A stretch of DNA of 34,544 bases, from IMG/VR virus record IMGVR_UViG_2529292736_000012. One strand, given 5' to 3'. Origin of the DNA: a virus (lineage: Duplodnaviria; Heunggongvirae; Uroviricota; Caudoviricetes). The position numbers and the translations under genes are program-made. Below, piece after piece: positions 1 through 30,586 of this stretch. The notes beneath the pieces were generated by a model that saw only the letters and a list, made by a program, of their open reading frames with translations, was not told the DNA's origin and did no database searches. Within the stretch, counting starts at the first letter, position 1; each line of letters begins with the position of its first letter.

Positions 1-300
1 ACGTTTGGGCTGGATGTAGTAGCGCAACATGGAACGGCCACCGGTATAACCCATCGCTTTGATTTCCGCCAGGATGACCTCGCCGTTCCAGACGTTCTCA
101 GCCAGACGCATATCTATATAGTCCATGAACGGCTTGAGTTTGGCCATTTTGTGGCGTGTTTTTCTGGCCGGAGGTTCCGGGTATTTCAGGTACCGTCTGA
201 CGGTCCGCTCAGAGCAACCAACCTGAGTGGCAATATCAACAATATACGCACCTTGCTGGCGCATTTGCTTTATCATGTAAAAATCCTCTCTGCTCAGCAT
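1..300 (-). CDS. istA: IS21-family transposase IstA, N-terminal fragment (ORF runs off the window)
   Basis: ATG at 300..298; open frame to position 1; recognised IstA N-terminal HTH sequence. Confidence 0.7.
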   Translation of the reverse strand, partial: MLSREDFYMIKQMRQQGAYIVDIATQVGCSERTVRRYLKYPEPPARKTRHKMAKLKPFMDYIDMRLAENVWNGEVILAEIKAMGYTGGRSMLRYYIQPKR

Positions 301-373
301 GAGTGTTCCCTTTGTGGTGTAGGAACCTTAAGGAAACAACATGTTGGGTGGAGCGGACAATCCAAATGGTGAA
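1..373 (-). mobile_element. IS21-family insertion sequence, partial (one end plus 5' part of istA); continues beyond window start. Exact terminus uncertain, somewhere in ~340-376
   Basis: Minus-strand ORF 300..1 translates to MLSREDFYMIKQMRQQGAYIVDIATQVGCSERTVRRYLKYPEPPARKTRHKMAKLKPFMDYIDMRLAENVWNGEV..., which I recognise as the HTH N-terminus of IS21/IS100-type IstA. Upstream leader contains TTTGGATTGTCCGCTCCACC. Confidence 0.7.
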
Positions 374-1540
374 TTACTGTCTTATATCATTGGCGCTGAC
401 ACCGTTCCTGTAATTCACGCGGAACTGTACAGCAGGGCAGCTCCCCGTATTCATATTGAAATGTAGGATTAATGTTGTTGCGCCACCAATATTTGCGTTA
501 TAGACCCCGCTATTCCAGTTCCAGCCAACAGCTTTATCATTTCCGACAGTGCTTCCTGTTTGCCCTAAAGCAAATGCAGGCTGCTGGTTTTTCGTGTTGT
601 AGTCTCGACGCCAGCCAGGAGCATAAGCATCACCATGATTAATATAAGTGAATTGAGCGTTAGTAATTCCGCCACCGCTGGAAGTGCTCGGGGTGGTTAC
701 ACGGATGGTCATGGCTCCTTTATTACCCATAACCTCAATAACGCAACCTGCAAGATGAATAGTTCCACAGCCAGTATCGGTAATAATTTTATTATTGCCG
801 TATGACCATGAACATTTGCACATCCAGTATGGGTGATTGAATGCCCCTTGAGAATCCAGCCATTCAATCAATTGTGCCGTCGTCCAGTTTCCTGCACCTG
901 TGCTAATAGCACCATGAAAAGAGCGGCAAGCACCTATTGTTTGCGTAAATTTATCTTTGTTTGGAATATCTGCGCCATTCTGGTTTTTCTGTAATGCGCC
1001 AGAAGCCTGATTTACCGTTTCCTGTAAACCGACGTTTTGGATAAACAGCGGCTTATTGGGAATATCTGCTCCGTTCCGGTCTTTTGCCAGACGGGCATTG
1101 GCATTATCCATCGCAATTTTCACCGCTTTTGCGGTGGCTGCCAGCGTTTCACTGGGGCTGTCAGTGGCACTGGTTAGCTGAACGAGTCCTTTTTTGTTCA
1201 GGCTGGCATCATAGATATCCAGATTTTCACGTGCTGTACGCTGTGCTGATGCCCCGGCAGTTTTAATTTCGCTGAGGTTATTTTTTATCAGCAGCGCGTT
1301 ATTGCTCATAATGGCTTTAATGGACAGTGCAAGCTGGTTTAATTTTGTTTTATCCGGTTGAATACCGGCTTCTTCCAGCGTGTTTAATAACTCCGCCTGC
1401 ACAATATTAAACCAGTCCATGCCGGGCCATGTGATAACATTATTCCCGTCACCTTCTGAAAACCAGCGAACGATAGCACTACGCTGGGCGGATACGGGCG
1501 GCATGACGGTTACGCCGCTGTCGTTATCAATATAAAACAT
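374..1540 (-). CDS. S: Mu-type tail fibre protein S (constant N-terminal part plus a short variable C-terminal part)
   Basis: 388-aa ORF; N-terminus MFYIDNDSGVTVMPPVSAQRSAIVRWFSEGDGNNVITWPGMDWF matches Mu S as I recall it; last gene of the tail module; contains gix-like site. Confidence 0.8.
   Translation of the reverse strand: MFYIDNDSGVTVMPPVSAQRSAIVRWFSEGDGNNVITWPGMDWFNIVQAELLNTLEEAGIQPDKTKLNQLALSIKAIMSNNALLIKNNLSEIKTAGASAQRTARENLDIYDASLNKKGLVQLTSATDSPSETLAATAKAVKIAMDNANARLAKDRNGADIPNKPLFIQNVGLQETVNQASGALQKNQNGADIPNKDKFTQTIGACRSFHGAISTGAGNWTTAQLIEWLDSQGAFNHPYWMCKCSWSYGNNKIITDTGCGTIHLAGCVIEVMGNKGAMTIRVTTPSTSSGGGITNAQFTYINHGDAYAPGWRRDYNTKNQQPAFALGQTGSTVGNDKAVGWNWNSGVYNANIGGATTLILHFNMNTGSCPAVQFRVNYRNGVSANDIRQ
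1017..1042. other. gix-like DNA invertase (Gin/Hin family) crossover site inside S
   Basis: TTCCTGTAAACC-GA-CGTTTTGGATAA, two 12-bp half-sites with partial dyad symmetry, closely resembling the Mu gix site as I recall it; lies at the constant/variable junction of S (encodes FIQNVGLQETV). Confidence 0.55.
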
Positions 1541-2082
1541 TAGTTATCTCCGTCATGGTAAACAAATTTATAAATCTGATGCGCGGGTTTATATTTCTCC
1601 AGTAAACATTCCAGCGCACCCGATTCATAAACACGTAACGGCGTCAGAACATTATCCAGCACCGTTGCGTTGCGATAATTTTTAATACCGTAAATATTGA
1701 CCTGCGTAACCCACTGGCCTTCTGTGGAATCCGTCAGCCTGACGGTAAAACCGTACTGCGCAGCCAGCCATTCATAAAAGCGCCGACTCAGATTGCCGGT
1801 CATACGCATTTTATTCGCGGCAGCCCGCTGGCGTTCGGACAGGGTGCCGTTTTCGCTTGTACAGTCCGGCAACCCCAGAAATGATTCCCACTCACCCAGA
1901 TACCAGCGGGATGTGGACGGGAAACGCTCCCGCAGCATTTGTCGCGCATCATCCGCCGCAGTGGCAATCACGTCGCTGATGGCCTGCGCCAGCGCAGATA
2001 ATTTGCTGTCGGGGCTTTTATTCCAGGCAAGCCCTGACGGCAGTAATTGCAGAAAGGCCGTCTGCCAGGGTGTTACAGCCAT
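1540..2082 (-). CDS. R: Mu gp48 (R)-like tail/baseplate protein (P2 gpI-like)
   Basis: 180-aa ORF immediately upstream of S; position in the Mu tail module. Confidence 0.7.
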   Translation of the reverse strand: MAVTPWQTAFLQLLPSGLAWNKSPDSKLSALAQAISDVIATAADDARQMLRERFPSTSRWYLGEWESFLGLPDCTSENGTLSERQRAAANKMRMTGNLSRRFYEWLAAQYGFTVRLTDSTEGQWVTQVNIYGIKNYRNATVLDNVLTPLRVYESGALECLLEKYKPAHQIYKFVYHDGDN

Positions 2083-3155
2083 TCAATTGTCCCCGGTGTT
2101 AACAGTTCCGTATTCTCCGAACGCTGGATCTCTGTCGGGAAACGCACTTCAAAATCATCCAGACCGGTAACACCTGCCACCGCACGGATAATACGGGAGG
2201 GGGCAAGTGCGCCGCCCGGCGTCACCTCATTAAAAAACATGGTATTAATGGCGTGGGTAATAGCCTGTTTCAGTTCGGCTGTCTTCGGTGATATATAAAT
2301 CCGTGGATTTACCGGCTTTGCCTTTGGCGCAAATACAGTGACATTTACACCGTCAGGCTGTCCGACAATCAGACCGGTGATCGGGTCAGTATGACCGGCG
2401 ATATAATCTGCCACGCGTTCCACGTCTGCCGGTTGTGGAAAAATATTGCTCCGGTTATCCATAACAAACGTCACCCCGACTGTGCCACCGCCTTTCCATG
2501 TCGGAAAACACCAGGCACGGGTAACGCCGCTGACTTCACGCGCCCAGCGGACGTAATCAAACTGATTACCGCCGAACGGAGGATACTGGACACGATATTC
2601 CAGCCGTGACAGCAGCTCCGCTGCACTCTCAATATCAGCCCCACCGGAAAACCCTTTTACAGTGATGGCATCGGAAACAACACAGGCAACCGGGGTGATC
2701 AACGTTAAAAGGGTATTCTCACCGGTATTTCCTGCTTCACCGGCAGCCAGTGCGGTAACGGTAATTTCCGTCGTTCCTGCACGGTCAATCACAATGGCAT
2801 CAGCCAGGCTGTAAACCACACCATCAGCACGCTGCCAGCGTGTACCGGCAGGAATGGTGGTCGCTGCCGATGTGGTGACAGTCAGCGGGCCGCTGGCGGC
2901 TGTCGCCTGTTTGCGGCGCACGCCCCAGAACCGGCAGTGCTCCAGCAACTCATCTTCATCTGCTGTCGACGGGATAATCTGCCGTCCAACCCATGAAATA
3001 TGCTCGTGACAACCGGCAGCAAGGCCCGCCTGAGCATAAGCAATGGCACTCAGCGTTTTTTCACGGGCCTGAGGCCAGCTACCCGGCAGGCGCTGTTCAA
3101 TATTCTGTTCTGTACGGGCAATCAGCGATGATAATGTCGGTGGTGAATAAGCCAT
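2073..3155 (-). CDS. W: Mu gp47 (W)-like baseplate protein (P2 gpJ-like)
   Basis: 360-aa ORF; synteny with Mu tail/baseplate genes. Confidence 0.75.
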   Translation of the reverse strand: MAYSPPTLSSLIARTEQNIEQRLPGSWPQAREKTLSAIAYAQAGLAAGCHEHISWVGRQIIPSTADEDELLEHCRFWGVRRKQATAASGPLTVTTSAATTIPAGTRWQRADGVVYSLADAIVIDRAGTTEITVTALAAGEAGNTGENTLLTLITPVACVVSDAITVKGFSGGADIESAAELLSRLEYRVQYPPFGGNQFDYVRWAREVSGVTRAWCFPTWKGGGTVGVTFVMDNRSNIFPQPADVERVADYIAGHTDPITGLIVGQPDGVNVTVFAPKAKPVNPRIYISPKTAELKQAITHAINTMFFNEVTPGGALAPSRIIRAVAGVTGLDDFEVRFPTEIQRSENTELLTPGTIEWL

Positions 3156-3593
3156 TTAAACCCCGTTAAATGCTGCTTTAAACTCATAAGGAATAACGGA
3201 ACCATCCGGTAATGTCAGTGCAATGTAGAGGTATAACCAGCCCTGATGTAACTGTTCCGCTCTGACGTTAATCGCACTTACCCGGCCCGCTGTTTTCAGC
3301 CATTCCAGCGCCTCTTCGGCATACCCTCTGGCGCGTTCCAGCGTATCCGGCGTGGTTTTTTCACGTGACAACAGCCACAACCGCGAACCGATGGGGCGGT
3401 CGCGGTAACTGTCCCCCCACCATCCACGGCGATCATCTGAACCATCCGGCAGCGTGTCAGAATCCAGCGCGCGCCGGTCGGTAAACAGGGAGATTGTCAC
3501 ATCGGTTGTCAGGCTGTCGTCGGTCAGCATATCGATGCCATCCTGTGCAATATCGCCGCGTCCGTTCGTCCAGATAATGGCTAAATCGGTCAT
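3156..3593 (-). CDS. V: Mu gp46 (V)-like baseplate protein
   Basis: 145-aa ORF; synteny. Confidence 0.7.
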   Translation of the reverse strand: MTDLAIIWTNGRGDIAQDGIDMLTDDSLTTDVTISLFTDRRALDSDTLPDGSDDRRGWWGDSYRDRPIGSRLWLLSREKTTPDTLERARGYAEEALEWLKTAGRVSAINVRAEQLHQGWLYLYIALTLPDGSVIPYEFKAAFNGV

Positions 3594-4183
3594 TGCATCG
3601 GCCCCGTGGTTCCGCCGCTGTCGCCGCGGTGGATATGCTTATCCGTCGATTTGCCATTGATGATGGCATCCGGGGCAGTAATATTGCTGTCGAACTGGCT
3701 TTTACCTTTAACGCCCAGACCTTTCTGGATCTCAACGTCGCCGGTAAACGTGGTTCTGGGTGTATCAACGGTCATGCTTTCATCAGCGTAAATCTCAACC
3801 GTTTTACAGGTAATGATGCAGCGCCCGTCCTTTGTCAGCCTGATACGATGCCCCTCGTGGTGGTAAATGCCTGCATCACCCGGTTCAAGATTTGTCGGGC
3901 GGTAGCGGCGGTCTTCCACCACAACGGCAATCCCCTGATCACGTTGTGCACCCACACAGGCAATCAGCGCCTCTGCGCCCGGCAGAGGAACGCTGAAATG
4001 CCCGTAATTTTGCAGGCGCTCCACTTCATCAGATTCCTCATCATCCAGCAGACCGACCTGCAGGTTCTGAACTTTTCGCCCGTCGTTAATCACGTTAACA
4101 ACGGCACGCGCAAGCATCAGACGCACACGACGCATCAGCGGTGTCAGCAGGCGGTTCATGGCGGAATCATTTACTCTTTCCAC
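3590..4183 (-). CDS. Q: Mu gp45 (Q)-like baseplate hub/spike protein
   Basis: 197-aa ORF; synteny. Confidence 0.7.
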   Translation of the reverse strand: MERVNDSAMNRLLTPLMRRVRLMLARAVVNVINDGRKVQNLQVGLLDDEESDEVERLQNYGHFSVPLPGAEALIACVGAQRDQGIAVVVEDRRYRPTNLEPGDAGIYHHEGHRIRLTKDGRCIITCKTVEIYADESMTVDTPRTTFTGDVEIQKGLGVKGKSQFDSNITAPDAIINGKSTDKHIHRGDSGGTTGPMQ

Positions 4184-5302
4184 GGCGGCGTTTTCTCCGG
4201 GTGTCTGCGATAATAATCTTCAACCAGCGCATCAATACCGCCGTTACTGTCGCCGCCTTTCCTGTTTTTACGGTCGCTTTCAACCGGCACCAGAAAGCCT
4301 TCGCGTGGTGCAAGGCTGACGCGGGTTTTCAGCCCGTCCTGGTCATTCAGTATCAGGGTGACTTTGCTGACCAGTAATTCTGTGGTTTTGATGGCATATT
4401 TCGAGGCATCAATAGTGACCAGCAGGTTCGGCATCCAGAGTTGCCCGTCCTTGCGTGTCCATCCGTCAATTTCTGCCTCAAAGATGATGGATTTTGCCAG
4501 TCTGCGGCGTTGCTCACGCAGGGCGCGGGCCTGTGCATCCTTCGCCGTAATTTTGCTGTCGGCAATGATGATCATCGGTCTGTAACGGGTCACATCACTG
4601 TCAGTGGCGGTCCCTTTCCGGGAGACGATACTTTTCGCATCAATATCATCACCCTCAGCACCGTTTGCGCGGGCATACCCCTTGACGGTGTATTCGCTGA
4701 ACCGGTCGCGGAAGTCTTCCTCAAAATCCAGTGTCAGCAGGTTTTCTCCGAGAACCAGCTCATCAGTGGCTGTGCTGGCAGCCCGGCTGAATACCAGCTC
4801 TCCGGCGGCATTGCTGGTCATCAGTACACCGCGTGCGCGGGAGGCACGCACCAGCGCCTCATAAACGGTTTCTGAATGGTCCAGCGTGAAGCCGGGAAAA
4901 ACTGCCGAACTTTCCTTATCGGAAAGCTCCCAGCGAACGGTAACGCCATAAGGAGCGCACAGGTCACGCGCAATCTGCTCCAGTGTGCGGTTTTTCCACT
5001 GTCCGCCACTGTAAACGGCAGCACAGTCAATCAGGTCAGCCGTTTTGTCACGTCCGGCGACAGTGATTTTCATACTGTCAGCGGTCATCTGGCGTCGCCG
5101 TGAATCGATATAACCGGTGCAGATAATCTGCCCCCCGATTTCCAGCGTGAACGCCTTCCCCGGTGCCAGCCCGGATAAATCCGTACCCGGTGGCACGTTC
5201 ACCCCCAGCTCAAAATATCCGGCTACGGATTCAATCGAGCGGGTGACAGAGACTGACGTCCAGCCGGTAAAAAGCCTGCCATCCGTTCGCAGCGTGACGG
5301 TA
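4171..5302 (-). pseudogene. P: Baseplate gene P (Mu gp44) interrupted by IS insertion; first 3 codons (ATG AGT AA-) lie on the far side of the IS at 6616..6623
   Basis: 343-aa ORF from an internal GTG, but the frame stays open up to the IS junction at 5302. Removing 5303..6615 restores ATG-AGT-AAT-ACC-GTC... (MSNTVTLRTDGRLF...), a 379-aa protein whose ATG overlaps the stop of N (ATGAGTAA). Confidence 0.85.
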
Positions 5303-5327
5303 TGAACCGCCCCGGGAATCCTGGAGA
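5303..5327 (+). repeat. IS left terminal inverted repeat
   Basis: TGAACCGCCCCGGGAATCCTGGAGA; matches the right end in 22 of 24 positions. Confidence 0.85.
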
Positions 5328-5356
5328 CTAAACTCCCTGAGAAAGAGGTAAACAGG

Positions 5357-5683
5357 ATGACTAAAAATACTCGTTTTTCCCCCGAAGTCCGTCAGAGGGC
5401 GATTCGTATGGTTCTGGAAAGTCAGGGCGAATATGACTCACAGTGGGCGGCAATTTGTTCCATTGCCCCAAAGATTGACTGTACACCGGAGACTCTGCGT
5501 GTCTGGGTACGCCAGCATGAGCGGGATACCGGAGGCGGTGATGGCGGGCTCACCACCGCTGAACGTCAGCGTCTGAAAGAGCTGGAACGTGAAAATCGTG
5601 AACTGCGCCGCAGTAACGATATCCTTCGCCAGGCTTCCGCTTATTTTGCGAAGGCGGAGTTCGACCGCCTCTGGAAAAAGTGA
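5357..5683 (+). CDS. IS3-family transposase OrfA (HTH / leucine-zipper part)
   Basis: 108-aa [33 protein letters not shown]...AEFDRLWKK, recognised as IS629-type OrfA. Confidence 0.9.
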
Positions 5684-6570
5684 TGCCACTGCTGGATAAG
5701 CTGCGTAAGCTGTACGGGGTCGGACCGGTATGCAGTGAACTACATATTGCCCCGTCAACGTATTACCACTGTCAGCAACAGCGACATCATCCTGATAAAC
5801 GCAGTGCCCGTGCGCAGCGCGATGACTGGCTGAAGAAAGAGATACTGCGCGTATACGATGGGAATCATCAGGTATACGGTGTGCGTAAAGTCTGGCGTCA
5901 GTTGTTACGGGAAGGAATCAGGGTAGCCAGATGTACAGTGGCGCGCCTCATGGCGGTTATGGGACTTGCCGGTGTTCTCCGGGGTAAAAAGGTCCGCACT
6001 ACCGTCAGCCGGAAAGCCGTTGCCGCAGGCGACCGCGTAAACCGTCAGTTTGTGGCAGAACGTCCTGACCAGTTGTGGGTGGCTGATTTTACTTACGTCA
6101 GCACATGGCAGGGGGTCGTCTATGTGGCGTTCATCATTGATGTGTTTGCCGGATACATCGTGGGGTGGCGGGTCTCATCGTCTATGGAAACGACATTCGT
6201 GCTGGATGCTCTGGAGCAGGCGTTATGGGCCCGTCGACCGTCCGGCACAGTCCATCACAGTGATAAAGGTTCTCAGTATGTATCGCTGGCCTACACACAG
6301 CGGCTTAAGGAAGCCGGATTACTGGCATCAACAGGAAGTACTGGTGACTCGTATGACAACGCGATGGCGGAGAGCATCAATGGCCTTTACAAAGCGGAGG
6401 TAATACACCGTAAGAGCTGGAAAAACCGGACAGAAGTGGAGCTGGCCACACTCACGTGGGTGGACTGGTATAACAATCGACGATTGCTGGAAAGGCTGGG
6501 CCATATCCCACCGGCAGAAGCAGAAAAAGCTTATTATGCTTCCATCGGAAACGATGATCTGGCAGCCTGA
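5680..6570 (+). CDS. IS3-family transposase OrfB (DDE catalytic part), expressed as an OrfAB fusion by -1 frameshift
   Basis: 296-aa ORF in the -1 frame relative to orfA, overlapping at GAAAAAG (5674..5680); integrase-core-like sequence (…HHSDKGSQY…YDNAMAES…). Confidence 0.9.
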
Positions 6571-6588
6571 GTTCACAGATAAAACACT

Positions 6589-6612
6589 CTCCAGGAAACC
6601 CGGGGCGGTTCA
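6589..6612 (-). repeat. IS right terminal inverted repeat
   Basis: Reverse complement reads TGAACCGCCCCGGGTTTCCTGGAG. Confidence 0.85.
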
Positions 6613-6615
6613 GTA

Positions 6616-8103
6616 TTACTCATTAATCACCTCAATACTGACACCACCGGGAACAAACAACGGGTTGCTGATACCGTTCCTGCGGGCCAGCCGTTGCCAG
6701 TTCCGGCTGTTTCCTGTGTAACGGTACAGGGCCACCATTGCAGGCATCGTCTCCGGCAGGCGGTGCGTTTCACTGCCCGCCAGTTGCAGCCCGCGTTTTT
6801 CCAGGTCGGCAACAACCAGCAGACGCAGTTGCGTAAGCTGAACACTGTCTGTCGAAAAGCCCTGCTCAGATGCCGTCAGAATGACGGTATCCAGTGCAGC
6901 CCCCAGCATGGCGGCTGTTTTTCCGATATCGGACACACTTTCAAATACCGGGGGCGTGGCTGTACCACTGTCTGAAAAGGATACCTGTGAAAAACCGCTG
7001 TCCGGGGTTATGGCAGTTAACTGTAACTGTCCCTGTGTGACGGTAGCAGATGTGCTGCTGGCCCCGCTGGCTGTGCCGGTTGTGGTGGACGGAGCATCCA
7101 GTACAGGTGCACGGGCGGCATTATCCATCCGGCGACTGAAATCCAGTGCCGCAGTCAGTGCCTGGCTGGCAGCTTCTGCCCGGTATGTCTGCGCCGCTGC
7201 CAGCATGACGTAGTTCAGTGTGGCAATATTTTTTTCTGCAACCGGACTGTTGTACGAGGTTGTGATTGTCCCCTGTCTGCCTGCGGTGGCGGCATGGCGA
7301 CGTTCGAATCGCTGCGCCAGACGGTTCCATGTGGAAAATGCTGTCCGGGTATCGCATAACGATGAAACGCCGGATAACGCCCCCATCAGCGAGGAGGCCA
7401 GCATGGCAGGCTGGTTAATCAGGCTGGTCACAGAGCCTTTCATCGCAGAAAGTGACCCCATCAGGCCGCTGACAGTCTGGGTGATCCCCAGATTATCCAC
7501 CGCATCACAGATATCATCGATGACACCGGTTACGGCATCCATTACGGCTGTTGCCGCCGCTGTGCCATCTTTTACGGTCTGCCAGACAGAGGACAGCGTA
7601 TCTCCCAGAGAACCGGTTACAGCAACAGCCTGTGCCGGTACGGCTGCACTGGTGTCTGTTTCTGCGTCCGGGGCAGTATCCTGCAACGACGGATAAACGG
7701 TAACGGTGAACGCGTAATAATTCAGTTCATCCGCTTTAGTGCGGCATTCCCATGAATCCACCATGACGTCCACAGTGCCGAAATCAGGATGTACCAGCTC
7801 ACCGCTACCCGGAGCATCAAGAGCATCCATCAGCGCACCCGCTTCATCTCTGGCTGTTTCTGCGTTGCTGTTCAGAATGCAGGCGCTGAATGTACGGGAG
7901 CGAAGCTTTTTCCCCAGGTCATTGACGCCGCCGGTATCACGTAACGGGTACTCGCGTTTAACCAGACGACGTCCGCCAGCCTGTTTTTGCTCCTCGATGA
8001 CGAGAAACGGCACGTTACGGAACGTGCCTTTGCCGGTTGTTTTCTTACCACCGCTGATTTTATCCCGGACAGCATTAACGGCATTTAAAGCATCTTCAAA
8101 CAT
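6616..8103 (-). CDS. N: Mu gp43 (N) DNA circularisation protein
   Basis: 495-aa ORF between tape measure and P; synteny. Confidence 0.8.
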
Positions 8104-8107
8104 GGTT

Positions 8108-10276
8108 TTACCAGCCTGTAATGTAGTTATCGCCCGCGTAAATATTCAGCCCCATACCGTCCTCGGTGACACGGGAACTGGCCAGTCGTAACCCCTCGCC
8201 AAGTTCGACGCGCAGCGAGGCTTCCGCATTCACTTTTTGTTCCTGCGGTTCCTTATCCGGGGCCGTCCATTTCTGATACAGGTCGGTTACAAAACCGCCC
8301 AGATACTCCCCGGCGACACTGCCCAGCGTGGCACCGGCAACCGTACCCAGCGGTCCGGCAAGGCTGCCAACGGCACCGCCGAGCCATGCACCGGCTGTAC
8401 TGCCAATTGCGCCTGCTTTTTCATGGGTTGACGCCTGCTCATCCATCAGGACGGGGGCAAGCTGGAGTGCCCCCATTACCGGGCCACCCAGACGTGACAA
8501 CGCACGACCGGCACCTTTCCCCATCCAGCCCAGCGCCCCGGCACCTTTTGTCATAACCCGACCGATCGCACTGCCTGCAAGTTTGTTTCCGATACCGGAA
8601 AACCACCCGCCAACAGCACGCCCGGCATCAGCCAGCTTTCCGACCGTTCCCGTAACCAGTTGCCCGGCAGCACTGCCTGCAAGCCTGCTCAGAAGACCGG
8701 ATTTACCGGGTAAAGGTAATGGTGCAGGCCGTGCCGTTACCGGTACGCCGGGTGGGGGTAATGCCAGTACAGGGCGTGGTGCAGGTAATGCCAGCGGCTG
8801 TGGCCCCGACAACAGCAACGGCTGTCGGGGTAACAGGGGCGTCATGCCTCTGCCTTTCCGGGTGCGGCCACCACGGCCACCGCTTCCGTAACCGCCGAAC
8901 CCGTGAGGCCAGTTAGTGACAAACACACGCTGAATGCCGATGCCTTGCAACAGCGCCTCAGACGTCATGGCATCCGGGACCGGCAGACCTGCCTGCCCAC
9001 GTTTGCGGTTTCGCATCCAGCGCCACATACGACGCCCGGTTTTAAACGGATAACTGGCAACCTGCCATGAGGGTTTTGCCACGGCCCAGCCTGCTCTCAG
9101 GGCTTTATTGGCAAGCCAGACAGACACCAGAACAGCAGCCAGTTTTTTCAGGCTGACAATATTCTGGTCAACCCATGCCAGCGCATCCTTACCCGGTTTC
9201 AGCCAGCGCCATAATTCCTGCGCCGCGATTTTTACCGTTCTGAACGTGGTCAGAAATTTCTGACCAATGTTTTCTGCCAGTGCGTCAAGTTCCCCGGATT
9301 TATCCGCCATGTCGTGCCAGTTAAGCACCCGGCGCATCTCGTTCTTGATTTCTTCAAAGGGGCCGCTGTTTGCCACCTTCGTGCGAAACTCAAGCAGGTT
9401 GCCCTCCATCTGGGCCATCATCCCGTCCCAGGAGTTCATGGCAGCCGCCTGTGCGCCTTTTGACTGCTCCAGCAGGGTCCGGAATACCGTCAGGATGGAT
9501 TTCAGGCCCAGCTTGCCTTTTTCACCCAACTTGCGGATTTTTTTCTCATCCTCACCCGTTGCATCTGCCAGCACCTTGTAAACGTTGATGCCATAGCCGG
9601 TCAGCAGGTTGGCATCCGCCGCGGTGATTTGCTGGCGGGCAAACATCTGTTTGAACTGTAACGAAGCCCCCTGTGCAGTGGGTAAATCCCAGCCGTGCAT
9701 CGCGCCCTGGTTCTGTAGCATGGTGATGAACTGTTTTACCTGTTCATCATTCATACCAAACGCCGTTGATGTGCGGATTTCCTGCAGAACGCCGCCCAGC
9801 CCCCAGGTGGTTTCTTTTGCGTTCTGTTTCGCCCAGGCCATCATGGCCTGCGCTCTGGCCTTATCGCCGTGATACAGCGAGTTCATGGCGATGATCTGCT
9901 GCTCACGCTGGGCGGCTGCACCAATAAACAGTTTATTGGCGGTGTAACCCACGCCAGCGATACCCAGCGCCCCGGCTGACAGCATTCGGAATGTACGGGT
10001 TGACAGAGAACCCATTCTGTCAATGGCACCAGAAACGCGCACAACCTCCATACGCAGGGCACGAAGGGAACTTTGTCCGCTACGGGACAGGGCGTTTATC
10101 TGGTTCGAATACTGGCGGGAACGCCGGGAAAGATTGCCATTAAGATCAATAATGACAGACGCCTTTAAGCGTTTCCCGGTCATAGAGATTTCCTGATTTA
10201 ACGGTGATATTGAGAGAGGGTTTTCGCCTGCTGGCAGTGCCGGAAAAAGCGGGACAGCGGGAGAGACAAGGCCCAT
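8108..10276 (-). CDS. Tail tape measure protein (Mu gp42)
   Basis: 722-aa ORF with Gly/Ala-rich repeats and a long helical region, downstream of sheath/tube genes. Confidence 0.8.
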
Positions 10277-21415: not shown

Positions 21416-21511
21416 GGGTGAAAAATCCGGTGTAAAACGTTACCGGCGAATCCAGGAACAACCGATCACCTGACCTGCCGTCGCCGGGCATCCGCCATTT
21501 TCATCTCCTCA

Positions 21512-21679
21512 GGACAACATCCTTAGTTGCTTTATGGTGGTATGCCATGAATTGCCTGAAGCCATGGCCTGAACAAGCACATCCCGAATCTGGTGTATCA
21601 ACCGGACATCAGACAATGTTGCAATCCTGAAGGCTTTTTTATGGGCACTGATTAGCTGTGCTTTGTAATTATTTTTCAT
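21512..21679 (-). CDS. Hypothetical small protein (56 aa) between gp27-like gene and large terminase
   Basis: ATG 11 nt after the gp27 stop; MKNNYKAQLISAHKKAFRIATLSDVRLIHQIRDVLVQAMASGNSWHTTIKQLRMLS; weak RBS, so uncertain. Confidence 0.3.
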
Positions 21680-21689
21680 AACGTAACGC

Positions 21690-22280
21690 CTACGCTTTCC
21701 CCAGCAGTACATCACGGATGCGCTGCTCCAGTTCTTCGCTGATGCCATCCTGCCCGCGCAGTTCTTCACTGACAGCGTTTGCCGCTTCTTCTGCGAACGC
21801 CTGGCGGATTTCTTTCTCGCGCCGGTGGCTGGACATTGCCGTGGATTCCAGACGCTGTGCCGCCAGCATGGCATTTTTCAGCAGGTCAATATCCACGTCA
21901 GATTCCGGGTTTTCGATTTGCCGCATCATGGCCTTAAAAAGCTGGCTGCGGGCCATTTCCAGAATCAGCTTTGTGGTTTCGCCCATTGGCTTGTCGCCAA
22001 GTTCTGCGGTCAGTGCTGACGTCATTTCACGCATCTGTCGCAGGTTATGGCCTACCTGCTCGACGTTCGTCGCGTAACGGTTCAGACCGGAACGGGAGAG
22101 TTTCATCTCATCCGGCAGGCCTGCGTCTTCAATCAGTGCGTTAATTTCTTCCAGAATGCGGGCCTGTGGGATCGCCTTATCACGCAGCATTTCATGCAGC
22201 GTTTTACGTACGTTTTCCGGCAGTAAATCCACTTTTGAAGCCCGGCCCCGTGTTTTCCTGTCCATCACGCCTCCTGTCAT
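21690..22280 (-). CDS. Mu gp27-like protein (putative terminase small subunit / DNA-binding)
   Basis: 196-aa helical, charged ORF upstream of the large terminase. Confidence 0.65.
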   Translation of the reverse strand: MTGGVMDRKTRGRASKVDLLPENVRKTLHEMLRDKAIPQARILEEINALIEDAGLPDEMKLSRSGLNRYATNVEQVGHNLRQMREMTSALTAELGDKPMGETTKLILEMARSQLFKAMMRQIENPESDVDIDLLKNAMLAAQRLESTAMSSHRREKEIRQAFAEEAANAVSEELRGQDGISEELEQRIRDVLLGKA

Positions 22281-22881: not shown

Positions 22882-23057
22882 CAGTGGCAGTAGTTCGCCA
22901 TCGGCTGCTGTCTCAGCACATCAGGCCGCAGCTCACGACCGCAACCGGCACACAATACAGGCGGGTCATACGCCGCCGGGCGGGGAATATCACGGGTATC
23001 CCCCTGCCAGAGTTCAGCGAGCAGCAGCGCCACCGCCCGGTTCTGGTCTTCGTTCAT
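22863..23057 (-). CDS. Mu gp24-like small Cys-containing protein
   Basis: 64-aa ORF with CAGC...CHWC motif (possible zinc ribbon); overlaps the 3' end of the preceding ORF. Confidence 0.5.
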   Translation of the reverse strand: MNEDQNRAVALLLAELWQGDTRDIPRPAAYDPPVLCAGCGRELRPDVLRQQPMANYCHWCRGAE

Positions 23058-23601
23058 AAATTTCTTTCCTTCGGATCTCCTGTTCCCGGACTGATGCCTT
23101 GTCGCGGTTGCACTGCCCGAGCGCCATCAACAGGTCAGCATTCCAGAGAAGGGATGCTCCCCACGTCAGGGGCTGTGGCATGGGCGGAACGGGCGTTGCT
23201 TCTGTCAGTTCTGTATCAGTTTCGGGCAGGATCACCACCGATGGCACGGGTGCGTTTTTCGAGTTCCCGCAACCTGTCAGCAGCAACGGCAGGCACAGGA
23301 CGAGTGCTGCAATTGTCACCAGTAATGGCGGTTGTAATTTTTCTTTTGCATCATGATGTTCTGTCTCATCTGCCAGCCGTGCGGCACGATTTGCGGCACG
23401 GATAGCGGAAAATACCTGCATCGTCTGTTCCTGACCGTGTAACAACCATTCAGCAGTGTGGCGGGCCTGTTGCTCCGTCTGTAATTCACGGCGCAGCGTC
23501 TGGTTATCGTGGCGGGTGCTGTCCAGCCTGTGCCACAACACCCCAGACAGAACGGCGGTAAACACGGCTGCCAGCAGTAAACTTTTACTGGCGAAGGTCA
23601 T
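23014..23601 (-). CDS. Spanin-like lysis protein (Mu gp23-like): N-terminal TM anchor plus coiled coil, followed in the same frame by a lipoprotein-like segment
   Basis: 195-aa ORF; N-terminal SLLLAAVFTAVLSGVLW; internal LVTIAALVLCLPLLLTGC (lipobox-like) followed by a Pro/Thr-rich stretch. Confidence 0.6.
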   Translation of the reverse strand: MTFASKSLLLAAVFTAVLSGVLWHRLDSTRHDNQTLRRELQTEQQARHTAEWLLHGQEQTMQVFSAIRAANRAARLADETEHHDAKEKLQPPLLVTIAALVLCLPLLLTGCGNSKNAPVPSVVILPETDTELTEATPVPPMPQPLTWGASLLWNADLLMALGQCNRDKASVREQEIRRKEIYERRPEPGGGAAAR

Positions 23602-25172: not shown

Positions 25173-25332
25173 CTGACTGCCAGCCTTTCATGTAATAACT
25201 GCCGTGGGTGCCATCATGACCGGTATAGTCGCGGGGTGCAGGCCGTGGCCCACCGGCGACACGGTGCAAAACCTCCTGACGCAGCCGCTCACGTCTGCCA
25301 AGATGAAAGGATGCATTCCAGCCTTTACCCAT
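25114..25332 (-). CDS. Mu gp18-like hypothetical protein (first gene of the middle transcript)
   Basis: 72-aa ORF starting ~50 nt after the early terminator. Confidence 0.5.
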   Translation of the reverse strand: MGKGWNASFHLGRRERLRQEVLHRVAGGPRPAPRDYTGHDGTHGSYYMKGWQSVDMPEILHHCLLYREKHYV

Positions 25333-25379
25333 GATGATTTCCCCCGGTACGGTTATTCATCACAGGATATTGAGGACGT

Positions 25380-25402
25380 AAAAAAAGCCGGATTAACCGG
25401 CT
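25380..25402 (-). terminator. Intrinsic terminator after mor (end of early operon; Mu t9.2 equivalent), overlapping the expected middle promoter/Mor-binding region
   Basis: On the transcribed strand: AGCCGG-TTAAT-CCGGCT followed by TTTTTTT, 8 nt after the mor stop. Confidence 0.75.
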
Positions 25403-25409
25403 TTACTGT

Positions 25410-25799
25410 TTACAGAAGTGAGGGCTGGTACTGGCGGTATTTCAGCCGTCGCATCCGGCGAATGGCCTTGTAAACCGTATTGAAAGTGACACCATAACGG
25501 GTGGTCAGTTCGCTGACGTTGCGACCGTTAAAATCATTCCAGATACGCAAATCCCGAATCAGCGAGTCCAGAACCTGACCGCGTGGAATGTAGACCTGAC
25601 CGCCGCCCAGATGCTTACAGATAGCCACAACAATCTCCAGTGAATGGGCAGGATCAACACCCAGCCGGGACAATTCCCCGCGTAGTAAATCGTTCAGCTC
25701 CGCCAGCAGTGCCGGAAAGCGTGACGTATCCTCTGCGGGATTGTCAAGATGTGCCAGGATGGTGTCATCCTGCAAATCACCAAATAAATCTTCCGTCAT
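25410..25799 (-). CDS. mor: Middle transcription activator Mor
   Basis: 129-aa ORF MTEDLFGDLQDDTILAHLDNPAEDTSRFPALLAELNDLLR... recognised as Mu Mor; paralogous to C. Confidence 0.9.
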   Translation of the reverse strand: MTEDLFGDLQDDTILAHLDNPAEDTSRFPALLAELNDLLRGELSRLGVDPAHSLEIVVAICKHLGGGQVYIPRGQVLDSLIRDLRIWNDFNGRNVSELTTRYGVTFNTVYKAIRRMRRLKYRQYQPSLL

Positions 25800-26347
25800 T
25801 GTGCCATCCTCCGTGTCTTTCTGGCATGGGCATAAGCCGCCGTCATGGCATCATAGCCGCGCAGTTCACGCCCGGACGGACTGACTGGCAACGGAAGCCC
25901 GTGACGGGAAAAGGCTTCACGAATACAGCGGATATGCCACTGCTTGAGAGTTTCGAGAACAATCAACAGGGTGTCGCCATGACACCACGCCAGCGTGGAA
26001 ACGCCCTGTCCGCCATTACGTTTCGCCGTCAGGCGCTGAACATATTTATCCAGCGCCACATCACCGCCATCGGTAATAAAACCGTCTTCTGCCATCTGCT
26101 GCCAGACTTTGTATACCTTCTCGCGGGGCGTGACATGCCCCTTAAAGCGGCGACGTGGATGTTTATTCAGCTTCTTAAAGCCGCGTTCTTTCATGGCATC
26201 GAGCACCTGTTCCAGTTGCGTAACCGTCAGCTCGCGGCAACTGATTTTGCCCGTTTTCTGCATCAGAAAAGCGCGGTAAGTGTCGTCGTCGAGTTGTAGC
26301 TCCCGACGGGCGACATGGATTAATTTAATCAGGGATGTGCGATTCAT
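25796..26347 (-). CDS. gemA: GemA
   Basis: 183-aa ORF overlapping the mor start by 4 nt; GGAGG RBS. Confidence 0.8.
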   Translation of the reverse strand: MNRTSLIKLIHVARRELQLDDDTYRAFLMQKTGKISCRELTVTQLEQVLDAMKERGFKKLNKHPRRRFKGHVTPREKVYKVWQQMAEDGFITDGGDVALDKYVQRLTAKRNGGQGVSTLAWCHGDTLLIVLETLKQWHIRCIREAFSRHGLPLPVSPSGRELRGYDAMTAAYAHARKTRRMAQ

Positions 26348-26416
26348 GATCGTACCTCCGGAAAGAGGCGGTGCTGCAACACCGCCTGAATTTACACATC
26401 AATCAGAGAGGATTTT

Positions 26417-26683
26417 ATGGAAAATAATGTACAACCTTATGATGTTGCAGGTTATGCGATTGCATCAGCACTGGTGCGCCTTCTGGTGAAGAAGGCGATC
26501 ATCACCGCAGAAGAGGGCCAGGCCATTTTCAGCTCTTCAGCAGAGATTTTAAAAGATGCGCCTGCAATAAGAACAAGCCGCCGCGAAAACATGCAACTGT
26601 CAAAGATCATGGAAGACATTATCAGTTCGTTAGACCCAGATGCTGACGGATCTCAAAAGCCTCAAACACATGAGCGTCAGTAA
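26417..26683 (+). CDS. Hypothetical 88-aa protein encoded antisense to the early operon
   Basis: ATG preceded by AGAGAGGA at 5-nt spacing; helical sequence MENNVQPYDVAGYAIASALVRLLVKKAIITAEEGQAIF...; 62-nt 3' overlap with the convergent gp15-like ORF. Confidence 0.35.
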   Translation: MENNVQPYDVAGYAIASALVRLLVKKAIITAEEGQAIFSSSAEILKDAPAIRTSRRENMQLSKIMEDIISSLDPDADGSQKPQTHERQ

Positions 26684-26924
26684 CAATATCCTGGTCTGAT
26701 AACCCCAGCCTGCGGCGGATGTACTCCTCGCGGGCTGTTTCATTTTGCAGTGCCACTACTGTTTCCAGACGATTCATTTCGCGGTTGATAATGTCACGGA
26801 CTTCTCTGGCGGTGAGATTATGCTTAATACCATATTCAACGATAGCGCGAACACGTTCCAGCATCCCTTTTTCAGCCATGACGTTATCAATATTAAGGGG
26901 AGTAAATTTATCTTCATTGTTCAT
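26622..26924 (-). CDS. Mu gp15-like early protein
   Basis: 100-aa ORF; synteny in the semi-essential early region. Confidence 0.6.
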   Translation of the reverse strand: MNNEDKFTPLNIDNVMAEKGMLERVRAIVEYGIKHNLTAREVRDIINREMNRLETVVALQNETAREEYIRRRLGLSDQDIVTDAHVFEAFEIRQHLGLTN

Positions 26925-27244
26925 TTTGCGGCCCTCAGAATAAATTCAGGATAAAATTTCAGACTCATTTGCCGTAACACATCCAGTGCAGCAACGGCTG
27001 CTGATTTATCGTTGCCATCAGCAATAGCGCGGAGATTTTCAATAATCCAGTGAGGACTCAGTGACTCAGCAATAATGCCAAACCGGTACGCCATGACCTC
27101 ATCAATAGCTTTTTCATGAGACGTCTCATATACAAAATTCACAAATTCATGCACTTCTTTTTTCGGCAAACCACCGGCAATCAGCAGGGCGGCAAGCTCT
27201 TCTGATTTTGAAAATACACCATTATTCATATCACTCACCTTCAC
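26921..27244 (-). CDS. Mu gp14-like early protein
   Basis: 107-aa ORF; synteny. Confidence 0.6.
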   Translation of the reverse strand: MKVSDMNNGVFSKSEELAALLIAGGLPKKEVHEFVNFVYETSHEKAIDEVMAYRFGIIAESLSPHWIIENLRAIADGNDKSAAVAALDVLRQMSLKFYPEFILRAAK

Positions 27245-27413
27245 AATTCATGCACGCCGTGTCATCGCCCATATCGCAGTGGTTGCATTTCTGCCCGCCA
27301 CAATGAGGGCACTCTTTCAGATATTCAGGGGATTCATTACCGCAGGTCGGGCATTCCTGTTTCACCGTGGTAAATTTCCCCAGCCACGAATACGATGTTT
27401 CACTGTTTTCCAT
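27231..27413 (-). CDS. Mu gp13-like small Cys-rich protein (probable zinc ribbon)
   Basis: 60-aa ORF with CPTC...CPHC...CNHC...CMNC. Confidence 0.6.
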   Translation of the reverse strand: MENSETSYSWLGKFTTVKQECPTCGNESPEYLKECPHCGGQKCNHCDMGDDTACMNCEGE

Positions 27414-27969
27414 TAGTTACCTCCGCCTGTTTTTGCGCCCGGATAAATTCGTCAGAAAGGATTTCAGTCATGCGGCCTTGCGCGGGTGTCATCCCCGTCA
27501 TGACGTAAATCACATCACCAACACGGAACCACTGGAGCGGCCCGAATATTGTTGCGCTGAAATCCAGTCCCAGTGCGGGTAAAAGAGCGTCTGTGCGGGC
27601 GTAAGTGACCGGAATATTCTCCTGCCATATTTTCGCCAGCTCTCTTGCCTGCTCCCTGAGATGAGCAGGTATCCGCGAAGTTCTGGGCCTGCAACTGTTA
27701 CCTGATGCGGGCCGTTGTACGGTCCACAGCTCCCGCGAGAAGGGGCGCTCATTCCCCGGAAAGTTCACACCATGAAAATGACGCCCACCAATACCGGTGC
27801 TGAATACTGACCGGCAACCACAGCCCAGAACCTTATCAAGATGGCGGGCTTCTTCGCGTAGTTTCAGGCAGTCCGCCATAAACTGGTCCCATGCCAGCAG
27901 TGCTGCGGGATTTGACGTTTTAAAAAACATCACGCCACCTCCTGCACCGTTGCGGGAACCGGAGAACAA
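27400..27969 (-). CDS. Mu gp12-like early protein
   Basis: 189-aa ORF; synteny. Confidence 0.6.
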   Translation of the reverse strand: MFSGSRNGAGGGVMFFKTSNPAALLAWDQFMADCLKLREEARHLDKVLGCGCRSVFSTGIGGRHFHGVNFPGNERPFSRELWTVQRPASGNSCRPRTSRIPAHLREQARELAKIWQENIPVTYARTDALLPALGLDFSATIFGPLQWFRVGDVIYVMTGMTPAQGRMTEILSDEFIRAQKQAEVTNGKQ

Positions 27970-28460
27970 TCAAGAATGAGATAACGCAGTACATGGTCGG
28001 TGATATTCCAGGCGCTTGAACTGCAAATAAAACGCCCCAGCCGGATATCGATATAAGCCATCACAAAACGGGGCATTCCCTGTTCGCACATTCTGTTATC
28101 CACCTCAGCAACAATGTGGACTGACTCACAGGTCAGCACGCCCGTCGCAAACTCTTTTGCCAGTGCGGGGATGGTATTACCTTCCACCCAGGGTAATGAG
28201 CGACGCCAGTTGCACCACACCGCATCATCAACAGCAGGCTGTTCAGTTGCGCTTCGTCTTACAGGCGGCGTCGGACGCGGGCGCGGAACGTCATAAAATC
28301 CGTTGCATTCGGTGAGAACGCCGGCATCAACCGCATCACGCAGGAAATACACCATTGATGAGGAAGGCATCTTCATTTTTTCAGCCAGAACTCCGCAGGT
28401 CAGGCGTCCGTAAGCCCGTAATAATGTGCTGACACCATTCAGAATTTTTGCATCAACCAT
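27930..28460 (-). CDS. Mu gp11-like early protein with possible N-terminal winged-helix fold
   Basis: 176-aa ORF; synteny. Confidence 0.6.
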   Translation of the reverse strand: MVDAKILNGVSTLLRAYGRLTCGVLAEKMKMPSSSMVYFLRDAVDAGVLTECNGFYDVPRPRPTPPVRRSATEQPAVDDAVWCNWRRSLPWVEGNTIPALAKEFATGVLTCESVHIVAEVDNRMCEQGMPRFVMAYIDIRLGRFICSSSAWNITDHVLRYLILDCSPVPATVQEVA

Positions 28461-28558
28461 GTTTTATTCCTCAGTAATCTTTTTCAGGCGCGAGCAATCC
28501 CCTGACGCATCGCGCCATAATTAAAAGAATGTGAATTAATTAAATATTAATGGTGGTA

Positions 28559-29083
28559 TTAAATACCGGCTTCCTGTTCAAATGGAATAATGGAAAAATC
28601 TTCAATTCCCGATTTAACCGTAATTCCGGCAACACCTGCGACGGCTTTTGGTTCCAGTAAAATCGCCTCCTTGTTGATTTCCTGCTTCGTGCGAATAAAG
28701 CGTTGCAGGCCAAGGCGCTCCAGCGTTTCCATCACTGCATCCATACCACGAATACTTACTGATGGTGGACGGACCCGCCACGATACATCACCGGTGACAA
28801 GATTCGCCGTCTTCACTTTGCCGCCGTTCGTCAGTTCGTCGCGGTTCGCTTCACACCATCCCTGAACGCCTTTTGAAAGGGTTTCAATATCGGTTTTAAT
28901 CGGTGCAATCCGGGCCGCAAATTTCTCCGTAATTTCCGCGATGGCATCATTCATTTCCGTTTCCAGACGTGATGCTTCGCGCTGTAAATCCCCGATGCGT
29001 TTAATATCGATAATCACCGCATCGCGGTTTTGTGGCACATAAGCCGCTGCGGCACTTTTGATGCGTTTTGCTGGTTTAGCCAT
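28559..29083 (-). CDS. gam: Gam (Ku-like DNA-end-binding host nuclease inhibitor)
   Basis: 174-aa ORF MAKPAKRIKSAAAAYVPQNRDAVIIDIKRIGDLQREASRLE... recognised as Mu Gam. Confidence 0.9.
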   Translation of the reverse strand: MAKPAKRIKSAAAAYVPQNRDAVIIDIKRIGDLQREASRLETEMNDAIAEITEKFAARIAPIKTDIETLSKGVQGWCEANRDELTNGGKVKTANLVTGDVSWRVRPPSVSIRGMDAVMETLERLGLQRFIRTKQEINKEAILLEPKAVAGVAGITVKSGIEDFSIIPFEQEAGI

Positions 29084-29102
29084 AAATTAAAGCTCCTGTT
29101 AA

Positions 29103-29822: not shown

Positions 29823-29842
29823 TGTCAGCGCTCCTTTGCGAA

Positions 29843-30112
29843 TTAATGTTTAACCGCATTCACCGGACGTGGTACTAAATCACATTCAGCTTCCATACCC
29901 GCTTTCTTCATAGTGGTCAGCATCTCATCTTTGGCCTTTTTAATAATTTCAGGAGCCATAGTCAGGACGATATTTGCCAGTAAATCATGAGGCCCGGTAT
30001 TTTCCGTTGGCGAGATATCTGCAAGACATGCTTTTGCATCCAGAACTTCTCTGCGCCCATTGCAACCGTCACTACTTTCCAGCCATGTAAACTCAAAGAT
30101 AACTTTTGCCAT
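29843..30112 (-). CDS. Mu gp7-like early protein
   Basis: 89-aa ORF; synteny. Confidence 0.6.
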   Translation of the reverse strand: MAKVIFEFTWLESSDGCNGRREVLDAKACLADISPTENTGPHDLLANIVLTMAPEIIKKAKDEMLTTMKKAGMEAECDLVPRPVNAVKH

Positions 30113-30123
30113 TTTGCTTCTCC

Positions 30124-30336
30124 TTATTGATTAACGGGCGTTGCATTTGTGATTTTGTTAAGTTCACAAAGCACATTTTCTGCGTGATGATGGTTGCCGA
30201 CATGAACGACCAGCCTGTGACCACCAACAAATTCAAAAGCAACACCGCCCTCAACAGTCGTTTCCATTACATTGACATTATCAAGGTTGATTAACTTACT
30301 AATTCCCAGATTATCGTGAATATTTATCACCATCAT
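30124..30336 (-). CDS. Mu gp6-like early protein
   Basis: 70-aa ORF; synteny. Confidence 0.6.
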   Translation of the reverse strand: MMVINIHDNLGISKLINLDNVNVMETTVEGGVAFEFVGGHRLVVHVGNHHHAENVLCELNKITNATPVNQ

Positions 30337-30343
30337 TTAAATG

Positions 30344-30571
30344 CTATCTCCAGATTATCTGACAACCATTAAGACGGGCCGTCCATACAGAACGGGCCAC
30401 CCCGGACTTATGCTCCATAATTCTGACCGCGTTTTTTACCAGTTCCACCGGTGGGTAAGTGATTTCAAGAATCGGACGCGCCACGCCGAGATATGATTCA
30501 TTTACATGGCTCCCGCGCGCCTGTAACCAGTTCTGCGCATCCGTTGCCATTTTTATATTTCGGGCCATCAT
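30344..30571 (-). CDS. kil: Kil (host killing / cell-division inhibition protein)
   Basis: 75-aa ORF immediately downstream of B; sequence [19 protein letters not shown]... recognised. Confidence 0.8.
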
Positions 30572-30586
30572 AATTTCTTCTCCTTC

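Follow-up and report, generated by a model that had tools for sequence, protein, structure and literature searches.

A very recent IS629-type insertion splits baseplate gene P of a phage Mu prophage in Escherichia coli and probably leaves the prophage tail-defective

Insertion sequences of the IS3 family are about 1.2-1.55 kb long, carry imperfect inverted repeats that end in 5'-TG...CA-3', and generate target duplications of 3-4 bp. The closest described relative of the element reported here is IS629 of EHEC O157 and Shigella, with which it shares a length of 1310 bp, TG...CA ends, a 3-bp duplication and an ALIL pseudoknot; we take IS3411 to be an isoform of IS629, like the annotated IS1203. 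In the gal and lac operons, classical IS1 and IS2 insertions abolish expression of distal genes by way of Rho acting on RNA left untranslated. Prophages are frequent targets of IS629, as 62% of the copies in O157 lie within them, with duplications of 3-4 bp (PMC3271280). In the Sp and SpLE prophages of O157:H7 strains Sakai and EDL933, this same element inactivates or marks prophage genes. Here we describe an IS629-type copy that, in contrast to those in O157, has entered a genuine Mu prophage, in a host background that is ETEC-like and not O157. This element very probably inserted into gene P of the resident Mu prophage only very recently, disrupting the gene and abolishing tail assembly, and as such represents an ordinary prophage inactivation, an already-known kind of event.

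The window, that is, the whole stretch of 34,544 nucleotides analysed, corresponds to bases 2-34545 of the draft contig AIHJ01000030.1 (GCA_000250395.2). A preliminary description made from the sequence had called it a Mu-type prophage, which was an understatement if anything: the prophage is phage Mu itself (AF083977), at 97-99% nucleotide identity over ~34 kb (collinear blocks of 96.7-98.9%) and with the Mu gene order c-ner-A-B...N-P-gp45-gp48-S. It is integrated in E. coli yfaP, which the Mu L end (...GAATCAATACA) abuts, and its right end (the rest of the G segment, gin, com, mom and attR) lies outside the window. Mu genes c to gp48 are full length, with 94-100% amino acid identity, except for a replaced gp6/gp7 segment and a frameshift in gp23/gp55. 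The frameshift is an older 1-nt deletion that joins the genes for i-spanin and o-spanin into one; the mosaic differences from Mu comprise extra ORFs of 56 and 107 aa, the replaced gp6/gp7 segment and a variant tail-fibre tip.

The inserted element and its borders comprise the following features.

5300..5302, no strand: target-site duplication GTA, left copy (nucleotides 9-11 of P, TAC on the minus strand)
5303..6612, plus strand: IS629-type element of the IS3 family, complete at 1310 bp
5303..5327, plus strand: IRL, the left terminal inverted repeat, starting with TGAACCG and matching the right repeat at 23 of 25 positions
5357..5683, plus strand: orfA, 108 aa, with HTH_Tnp_1 (Pfam PF01527, E = 4e-12)
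5638..5754, plus strand: predicted programmed -1 frameshift region, ALIL pseudoknot (Rfam RF01497)
5680..6570, plus strand: orfB, 296 aa (-1 frame with respect to orfA), with HTH_21 and an rve (DDE) domain
6588..6612, plus strand: IRR, the right terminal inverted repeat, ending with CGGTTCA
6613..6615, no strand: target-site duplication GTA, right copy, present as a single copy in empty sites

The length, TG...CA ends, 3-bp duplication, ORFs in 0/-1 frames, and HTH and DDE domains are all those of the IS3 family, and the 25-bp repeats are imperfect, with mismatches at positions 15-16. Additional Pfam matches in OrfB are to PF00665 (E = 3.5e-27), PF13276 and rve_3. An A5G run, AAAAAG (5675-5680), lies directly 5' of the orfA stop within the ALIL pseudoknot, which matches the full Rfam model (1-117) at E = 8.7e-30 and scores 116.2 bits, the gathering cutoff being 50. 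The IS629-like, 1310-bp IS3 element proposed in the preliminary description is thus borne out by matches to annotated copies, by the imperfect repeats and by the 0/-1 frames of orfA and orfB.

All 1310 bp are identical (1310/1310) to copies in ETEC H10407 and in other genomes and plasmids, which RefSeq labels "IS3 family transposase, programmed frameshift". Over its full length the element is 96.0% identical in nucleotide sequence to one annotated as IS629 in phage BP-4795 (98% amino acid identity for OrfA, 97% for OrfB), with the same ORF layout (orfA at nt 55-381, orfB at nt 378-1268), and it is 94.8-95.0% identical to copies annotated "IS1203 family". By the ISfinder naming convention, sequences share an IS name at ~95% or more nucleotide identity to the type element. 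The name used here is taken from annotated copies (BP-4795, "IS1203 family" and RefSeq), the ISfinder type being a sequence from S. sonnei. Assignment to another IS3-family member was considered and rejected, as every full-length match bearing an IS name was to IS629 or IS1203. Whereas EHEC copies of IS629 are only ~95-96% identical to it, the element is 100% identical to the copies in H10407 and related ones and represents an ETEC-type variant. Its intact ORFs and ends, its many 100% identical copies and its polymorphism between sibling read sets give it the appearance of a functional element.

The insertion lies in the late region of the prophage, whose relevant features are as follows.

6616..8103, minus strand: N/gp43, intact and full length, encoding the DNA circularization / tube initiator protein (97.2% identity with Mu N), its stop abutting the IS
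~6958..7024, minus strand: homologue of the C-activated Mu late promoter P_P, inside N (Mu annotation 27287-27353)
6573..6623, minus strand: 5' stump of P, its ATG (6623..6621) overlapping the N stop, encoding MSNT plus 12 IS-encoded residues, then a stop
4171..5302, minus strand: body of P/gp44 (baseplate hub), comprising the last base of codon 3, codons 4-379 and the stop
3590..4183, minus strand: gp45, P transcription unit, intact
3156..3593, minus strand: gp46, P transcription unit, intact
2073..3155, minus strand: gp47, P transcription unit, intact
1540..2082, minus strand: gp48, P transcription unit, intact
374..1540, minus strand: tail fibre S, P transcription unit, intact

Gene P follows N (gp43) and precedes gp45. 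Positions 6623..6616 read ATGAGTAA on the minus strand, and here the start of P overlaps the stop of N (TAA, 6618..6616); this overlap and the start context of P are identical to those of Mu. The triplet GTA occurs once at each of three independent empty sites (in E. coli JCKP02, SRR096911 and SRR13614867), and the GTA duplication flanking the element is therefore real rather than a 1-in-64 coincidence. Because the duplicated triplet corresponds to nucleotides 9-11 of P, the IS follows nucleotide 11 of the gene (or nucleotide 8 if the other TAC copy is counted). Codons 3 and 4 are split, gene N is left untouched, and codon 4 (ACC) resumes at 5301. In the comparison with Mu, gene order, the N/P overlap and P_P are shared, and only here is P split by an IS.

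Deletion of 5303..6615 in silico produces a 1140-nt ORF of 379 aa that is exactly the empty site found in other E. coli. The restored protein aligns with Mu P in a single piece over residues 1-379 (98.7% amino acid identity), matches PDB 1WRU with E = 8.5e-250, and contains the Pfam domains GpP-like_1st (residues 4-88), Gp44-like_2nd and GpP_4th. The reconstructed DNA aligns with Mu 25188-31324 as one block of 6142 bp at 97.4% identity, continuous across the junction. In the preliminary description the ATG of P was placed over the N stop with the frame resuming at 5301, the element lay between codons 3 and 4 within a 3-bp GTA duplication (here at 5300-5302 and 6613-6615), and excision restored a 379-aa P. 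These coordinates and the restored gene hold, as does the expected continuity with Mu P, and the point of insertion is now refined to nucleotide 11 (or 8).

A passage in PMC4461284 that cites Grundy & Howe 1985 describes P as needed for tail synthesis, and the baseplate hub is a trimer of gp44 (PMC11915804). The body of P is intact, yet it is severed from its start codon and ribosome-binding site. In the P frame there is no ATG, GTG or TTG from the stop inside the IS to the GTG at 5202, which is codon 37 of P, and thus gp44 should not be made. With IS629 transposing by copy-out/paste-in, a very recent insertion into the resident Mu prophage in yfaP would have duplicated TAC (nucleotides 9-11 of P), leaving the start codon, the ribosome-binding site and P_P on the N side and the other 376 codons 1.3 kb away. 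Ribosomes initiating at the ATG of P would then produce a 16-residue peptide that terminates within the IS, and the gp44 baseplate hub would be lost.

The same geometry is expected to affect the genes beyond P. An insertion that leaves RNA untranslated can, with Rho, cut promoter-distal expression. The position of P_P was taken from the Mu GenBank annotation and later papers, and the aligned stretch differs from Mu by just 2 substitutions. The IS separates P_P from codon 4 of P, giving the order P_P, IS, and then the P body through S. The genes 3' of P (374..4183) overlap or are closely packed, leaving no space for another promoter, and gp45-gp48 (Q, V, W and R presumably being their older genetic names) have full-length matches to Mu at 99-100%. 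Since P_P is conserved upstream of the IS and the downstream genes are tightly packed, loss of P, polarity on gp45-gp48 and S, and a tail-defective prophage are all well-supported predictions. Transcripts from P_P would include a 1.3-kb antisense stretch of the IS that is not translated, and Rho-dependent polarity would be expected on gp45-gp48 and the tail-fibre genes; as in the IS1 and IS2 insertions in gal and lac, an IS here separates a promoter from its distal cistrons, with polarity in the present case predicted from geometry. On induction, transposition, replication and head filling would persist, while assembly of the baseplate and tail would fail. A sigma-70 scan of 5000-7200 on both strands identified no promoter; since it missed even the IS transposase promoter, it is a poor guide to outward promoters. 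A simple terminator scan of the IS minus strand found only one weak terminator-like hairpin, in IRR.

Several comparisons bear on the age and distribution of the insertion. In the IS-free sibling read set SRR096911 the flanks are 100.000% identical over 5491 and 4001 bp (9.5 kb), which indicates that the insertion is very recent and rules out an old, decayed one. The prophage in SRR096911 is suggested to occupy the same yfaP site. No complete E. coli genome among 5426 contained the insertion (0/5426), scans for the exact junctions in species-representative genomes and JGI metagenome contigs yielded no further carrier, and a literature search for IS629 in baseplate genes of Mu-like prophages returned nothing relevant. 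Junctions at several loci were checked by pattern search. Because IS629 occurs in many copies and the contig comes from a draft genome built from short reads, an assembler might have misplaced the element into the prophage. This is hardly credible, since the single contig AIHJ01000030.1 contains both junctions and, at them, an exact duplication of a triplet that occurs only once in empty sites, a duplication that a chance misjoin would not produce, and a second assembler (Logan, SRR096912) also recovered the N-side junction in a contig that ends inside the IS.

Three further readings accept the insertion and differ as to its consequences. The prophage may have been defective before the IS arrived, through the spanin frameshift or through lesions outside the window, such that the insertion was neutral; we regard this as unlikely. 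In its favour, the 1-nt deletion fusing the spanin genes is shared by the IS-free SRR096911 and absent from 10 other Mu-like loci, and the right end of the prophage is not covered by the window. Against it, the other Mu genes from c to gp48 are full length (94-100% amino acid identity), apart from the replaced gp6/gp7. Spanin defects affect only the last step of lysis, which, together with the integrity of the other genes, is compatible with P as the first morphogenetic lesion. Prior defectiveness would in any case supplement disruption of P by IS629 rather than replace it, and defects other than the IS may exist or may have preceded it. The insertion could also be leaky rather than null, with translation of a hybrid P from ATT (5319..5317; IPGAVH followed by residues 4-379) or of a truncated P from GTG 5202, and with read-through supplying the downstream genes for some tailed phage. 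The open P frame extends 30 codons into the IS with only 3 native residues lost, a 382-aa hybrid P with a rare ATT start in IRL was annotated by one gene caller, such that a trace of near-full-length P may still be made, and the IS minus strand contained no strong intrinsic terminator in our scan. Yet the 30 IS-derived codons contain no ATG, GTG or TTG, the ATT lacks a well-spaced Shine-Dalgarno (GGGAG is found 13 nt upstream of it and AGG directly next to it), the product from GTG 5202 would be missing residues 1-36 of the 85-residue first domain (GpP-like_1st), and a 1.25-kb untranslated leader invites Rho termination. Leakiness of this kind is quite improbable.

A related proposal, which we consider highly improbable, is that IS629 acts as a reversible gate rather than a dead end, or that the ATT start in IRL provides low-level hybrid P and the block is leaky. 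In EHEC, the IS-excision enhancer IEE promotes precise excision of IS629 (PMC9943667). The proposal starts from the displacement of only three P codons and from the pristine flanks. If IS629 were such a gate, its precise excision would give back a tail operon with full function, the lineage would switch Mu back and forth between an infectious and a tailless state, and SRR096911 would represent a revertant rather than the ancestor.

Under the preferred reading, disruption of P by a very recent insertion, the 343-aa and 382-aa "P" ORFs called at this locus would be artefacts of a split gene, and the prophage would be scored as defective, most likely yielding tailless heads, despite ~98% identity to Mu and nearly all genes intact. 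Our understanding of IS3-family elements and of Mu is unchanged by this locus, the interest of which lies in annotation and strain biology. The presence and absence of the IS in two otherwise identical read sets provide a clean, datable instance of IS629 activity outside O157, and this polymorphism could act as a strain marker.

Judged by its ends, flanking repeats, two ORFs, encoded domains and frameshift signals, the stretch at 5303..6612 shows every structural part expected of an IS3-family element, in keeping with the preliminary description, which had claimed a 1310-bp member of that family with imperfect inverted repeats, a GTA target duplication and a -1 arrangement of orfA and orfB. 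All of these were recovered, and the two termini match at 23 of their first 25 positions. An Rfam match to the ALIL frameshift pseudoknot spans the orfA/orfB overlap (5638..5754; whole model, 116 bits versus a gathering score of 50), and an A5G run at 5675-5680 lies immediately 5' of the orfA stop.

Features of the inserted element, and an ORF in a separate segment of the prophage
5303..6612, plus strand: IS element, 1310 bp, first letters TGAACCGCCCCGGG, last letters CCCGGGGCGGTTCA
5300-5302 and 6613-6615: GTA direct repeats immediately flanking both ends of the element
5357..5683, plus strand: orfA, 108 aa, Pfam HTH_Tnp_1 (E = 4e-12)
5680..6570, plus strand: orfB, 296 aa, in the -1 frame relative to orfA, Pfam HTH_21 and rve integrase/DDE core (E = 3.5e-27)
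21509..21679, minus strand: 56-aa ORF within a 275-bp segment, beginning MKNNYKAQLISAHKK

Across its full 1310 bp the element matches copies from ETEC H10407 and from several further E. coli isolates of human origin at 100% identity, and RefSeq labels these identical copies 'IS3 family transposase, programmed frameshift', marking an 'AL1L pseudoknot' in them; 3043 of 5426 complete E. coli genomes hold a copy at a coverage of at least 80%. For naming, annotated genome, phage and plasmid copies served as surrogates for the ISfinder type sequence. The element is 96.0% identical to the annotated IS629 of phage BP-4795, in which the ORFs occupy the same positions (nt 55-381 and 378-1268; OrfA 98% and OrfB 97% identical as proteins), and ~95% identical to 'IS1203 family' plasmid copies. 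Together with the ETEC copies, these identities argue that 'IS629-like', the name originally proposed, is accurate.

By its sequence, the window, which corresponds to bases 2-34545 of contig AIHJ01000030.1 (assembly GCA_000250395.2), is phage Mu read in the reverse direction. Mu coordinates 339 to ~32,000 are covered by collinear blocks at 96.7-98.9% nucleotide identity, followed by a more divergent piece of the G segment, and the Mu proteins c through gp48 are all full-length at 94-100% identity except for the gp6/gp7 segment, the gp23/gp55 pair and P. The Mu left terminus meets E. coli yfaP, beside yfaQ, just beyond the window end; in the retrieved locus covering this junction (L028) the Mu end is at 3430 (~window coordinate 34883; feature at 3369..3602). 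Integration is thus in yfaP, adjoining yfaQ and an alpha-2-macroglobulin gene. ETEC strain TW10590, which carries no Mu at that site, matches the host flank at 100% identity.

The element interrupts P, which encodes the baseplate hub gp44, after nt 11 of the gene. The minus strand at 6623..6616 reads ATGAGTAA, so that the P start codon overlaps the stop of the upstream gene N exactly as in Mu and as had been described. In silico removal of 5303..6615 gives the predicted 379-aa ORF, which aligns with Mu P in one piece over residues 1-379 (98.7% identity) and matches the gp44 crystal structure 1WRU with E = 8.5e-250. The restored DNA aligns continuously across the junction with Mu 25188-31324, in one unbroken block of 6142 bp (97.4%). 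These matches confirm that the restored ORF is P. The restored junction also equals, letter for letter, that of E. coli JCKP02, which has an empty site.

Two-piece alignments spanning ~2788 bp (4101 - 1313) were the best matches when 4100-8200 was used to query complete E. coli genomes, and the insertion was present in 0 of 5426. Both junctions are present in GCA_000250395.2, the source assembly, and a contig of SRR096912 contains the N-side junction and then stops inside the element. In a Logan contig of the sibling read set SRR096911, which encodes an identical N protein, the site is empty and the two flanks (5491 and 4001 bp) each match the window at 100.000% identity. The insertion sets apart otherwise identical prophages and, given these flanks, must have happened very recently. 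Scans for the junctions in species-representative genomes and JGI metagenomes yielded no further carrier, and the literature searched contained no report of this insertion site.

The C-dependent late promoter P_P lies within N in the Mu record (27287-27353), ~335 bp upstream of P. Because its homologue is at 7024..6958, with only 2 positions differing from Mu, the element separates P_P from the body of the P-to-S block, whose genes overlap or abut and therefore leave no space for a further promoter. Translation from the P ATG would run for 16 residues and stop within the right inverted repeat. The frame of the P body is open 30 codons into the left inverted repeat, and the earliest ATG, GTG or TTG is the GTG at 5202 (codon 37), and a product begun there would miss nearly half of its first domain, placed by Pfam at residues 4-88. 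A leaky phenotype is conceivable in that, in one public gene call, P is a 382-aa hybrid begun at an ATT inside the left repeat (6785..7933 of the retrieved locus L006; window ~5319..4171, minus strand), but this ATT has no correctly spaced Shine-Dalgarno sequence, and we consider leakiness very improbable. The call itself comes from annotating a split gene, an artefact that would mask the disruption in protein-level surveys.

In the centre of the Mu baseplate gp44 forms a trimeric hub (PMC11915804), and a passage of PMC4461284, citing Grundy & Howe 1985, states that tail synthesis needs P. The expected phenotype is loss of gp44, with Rho-dependent polarity on gp45-gp48 and S predicted as probable. 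Such a prophage should still be able to transpose and fill heads, and be unable to make tails.

Few insertion sequences of E. coli have been studied as well as IS629, polar IS insertions are described in textbooks, and both the structure and the genetics of Mu gene P have been characterised; the insertion is a further case of a phenomenon already fully understood, not something new in kind. In O157:H7, 62% of IS629 sites are in prophages, and 3-4 bp duplications are made (PMC3271280). The value of the present case lies in correct annotation, that is, of a split gene and a defective prophage, and in an isogenic pair that cleanly records how IS629 moved recently within an ETEC-like background.

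The prophage also carries a 1-nt deletion in an A-run at ~23338-23347 (Mu AAAAGAAAAAA to AAAAGAAAAA; ORF 23014..23601, minus strand). This shifts the i-spanin gp23 after ~87 aa into the frame of the o-spanin gp55, giving a single fused 195-aa ORF in which the o-spanin's own ATG is out of frame and meets a stop after 12 codons. Since the IS-free SRR096911 and an independent third run, SRR28409869, share the fused ORF, and ten other Mu-like loci have a normal 128-aa gp23 and lack the deletion, the deletion is older than the insertion, which suggests that the prophage was already gathering lesions before the element arrived. Either it is a second, earlier lesion, or the product may be a covalently linked spanin that may or may not be competent.

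Other departures from Mu include the 275-bp segment (21416..21692) flanked by the terminase genes D (small) and E (large), which has no Mu counterpart and, among 50,697 phage records, is found only in Yersinia phage vB_YpM_Tongde (88.6% identity); its 56-aa ORF is probably a small moron gene. An extra 107-aa ORF (26921..27244, minus strand) lies between the gp13 and gp14 homologues in ~290 bp without Mu counterpart. In the early region, at the position of Mu gp6/gp7 (E5/E6), 29837..30345 holds unrelated sequence of similar length, in which tblastn found no match to gp6 or gp7. The window start, base 2 of the source contig, falls inside the invertible G segment (1..1540), where the 388-aa tail fibre S (374..1540, minus strand) combines constant residues 1-186 with a variable part that shares only 84% identity with Mu S'. 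Other contigs carry the chaperone gene, gin, com, mom and the right end, and the left boundary of the window probably reflects a break in the assembly at the inverted repeats of G.
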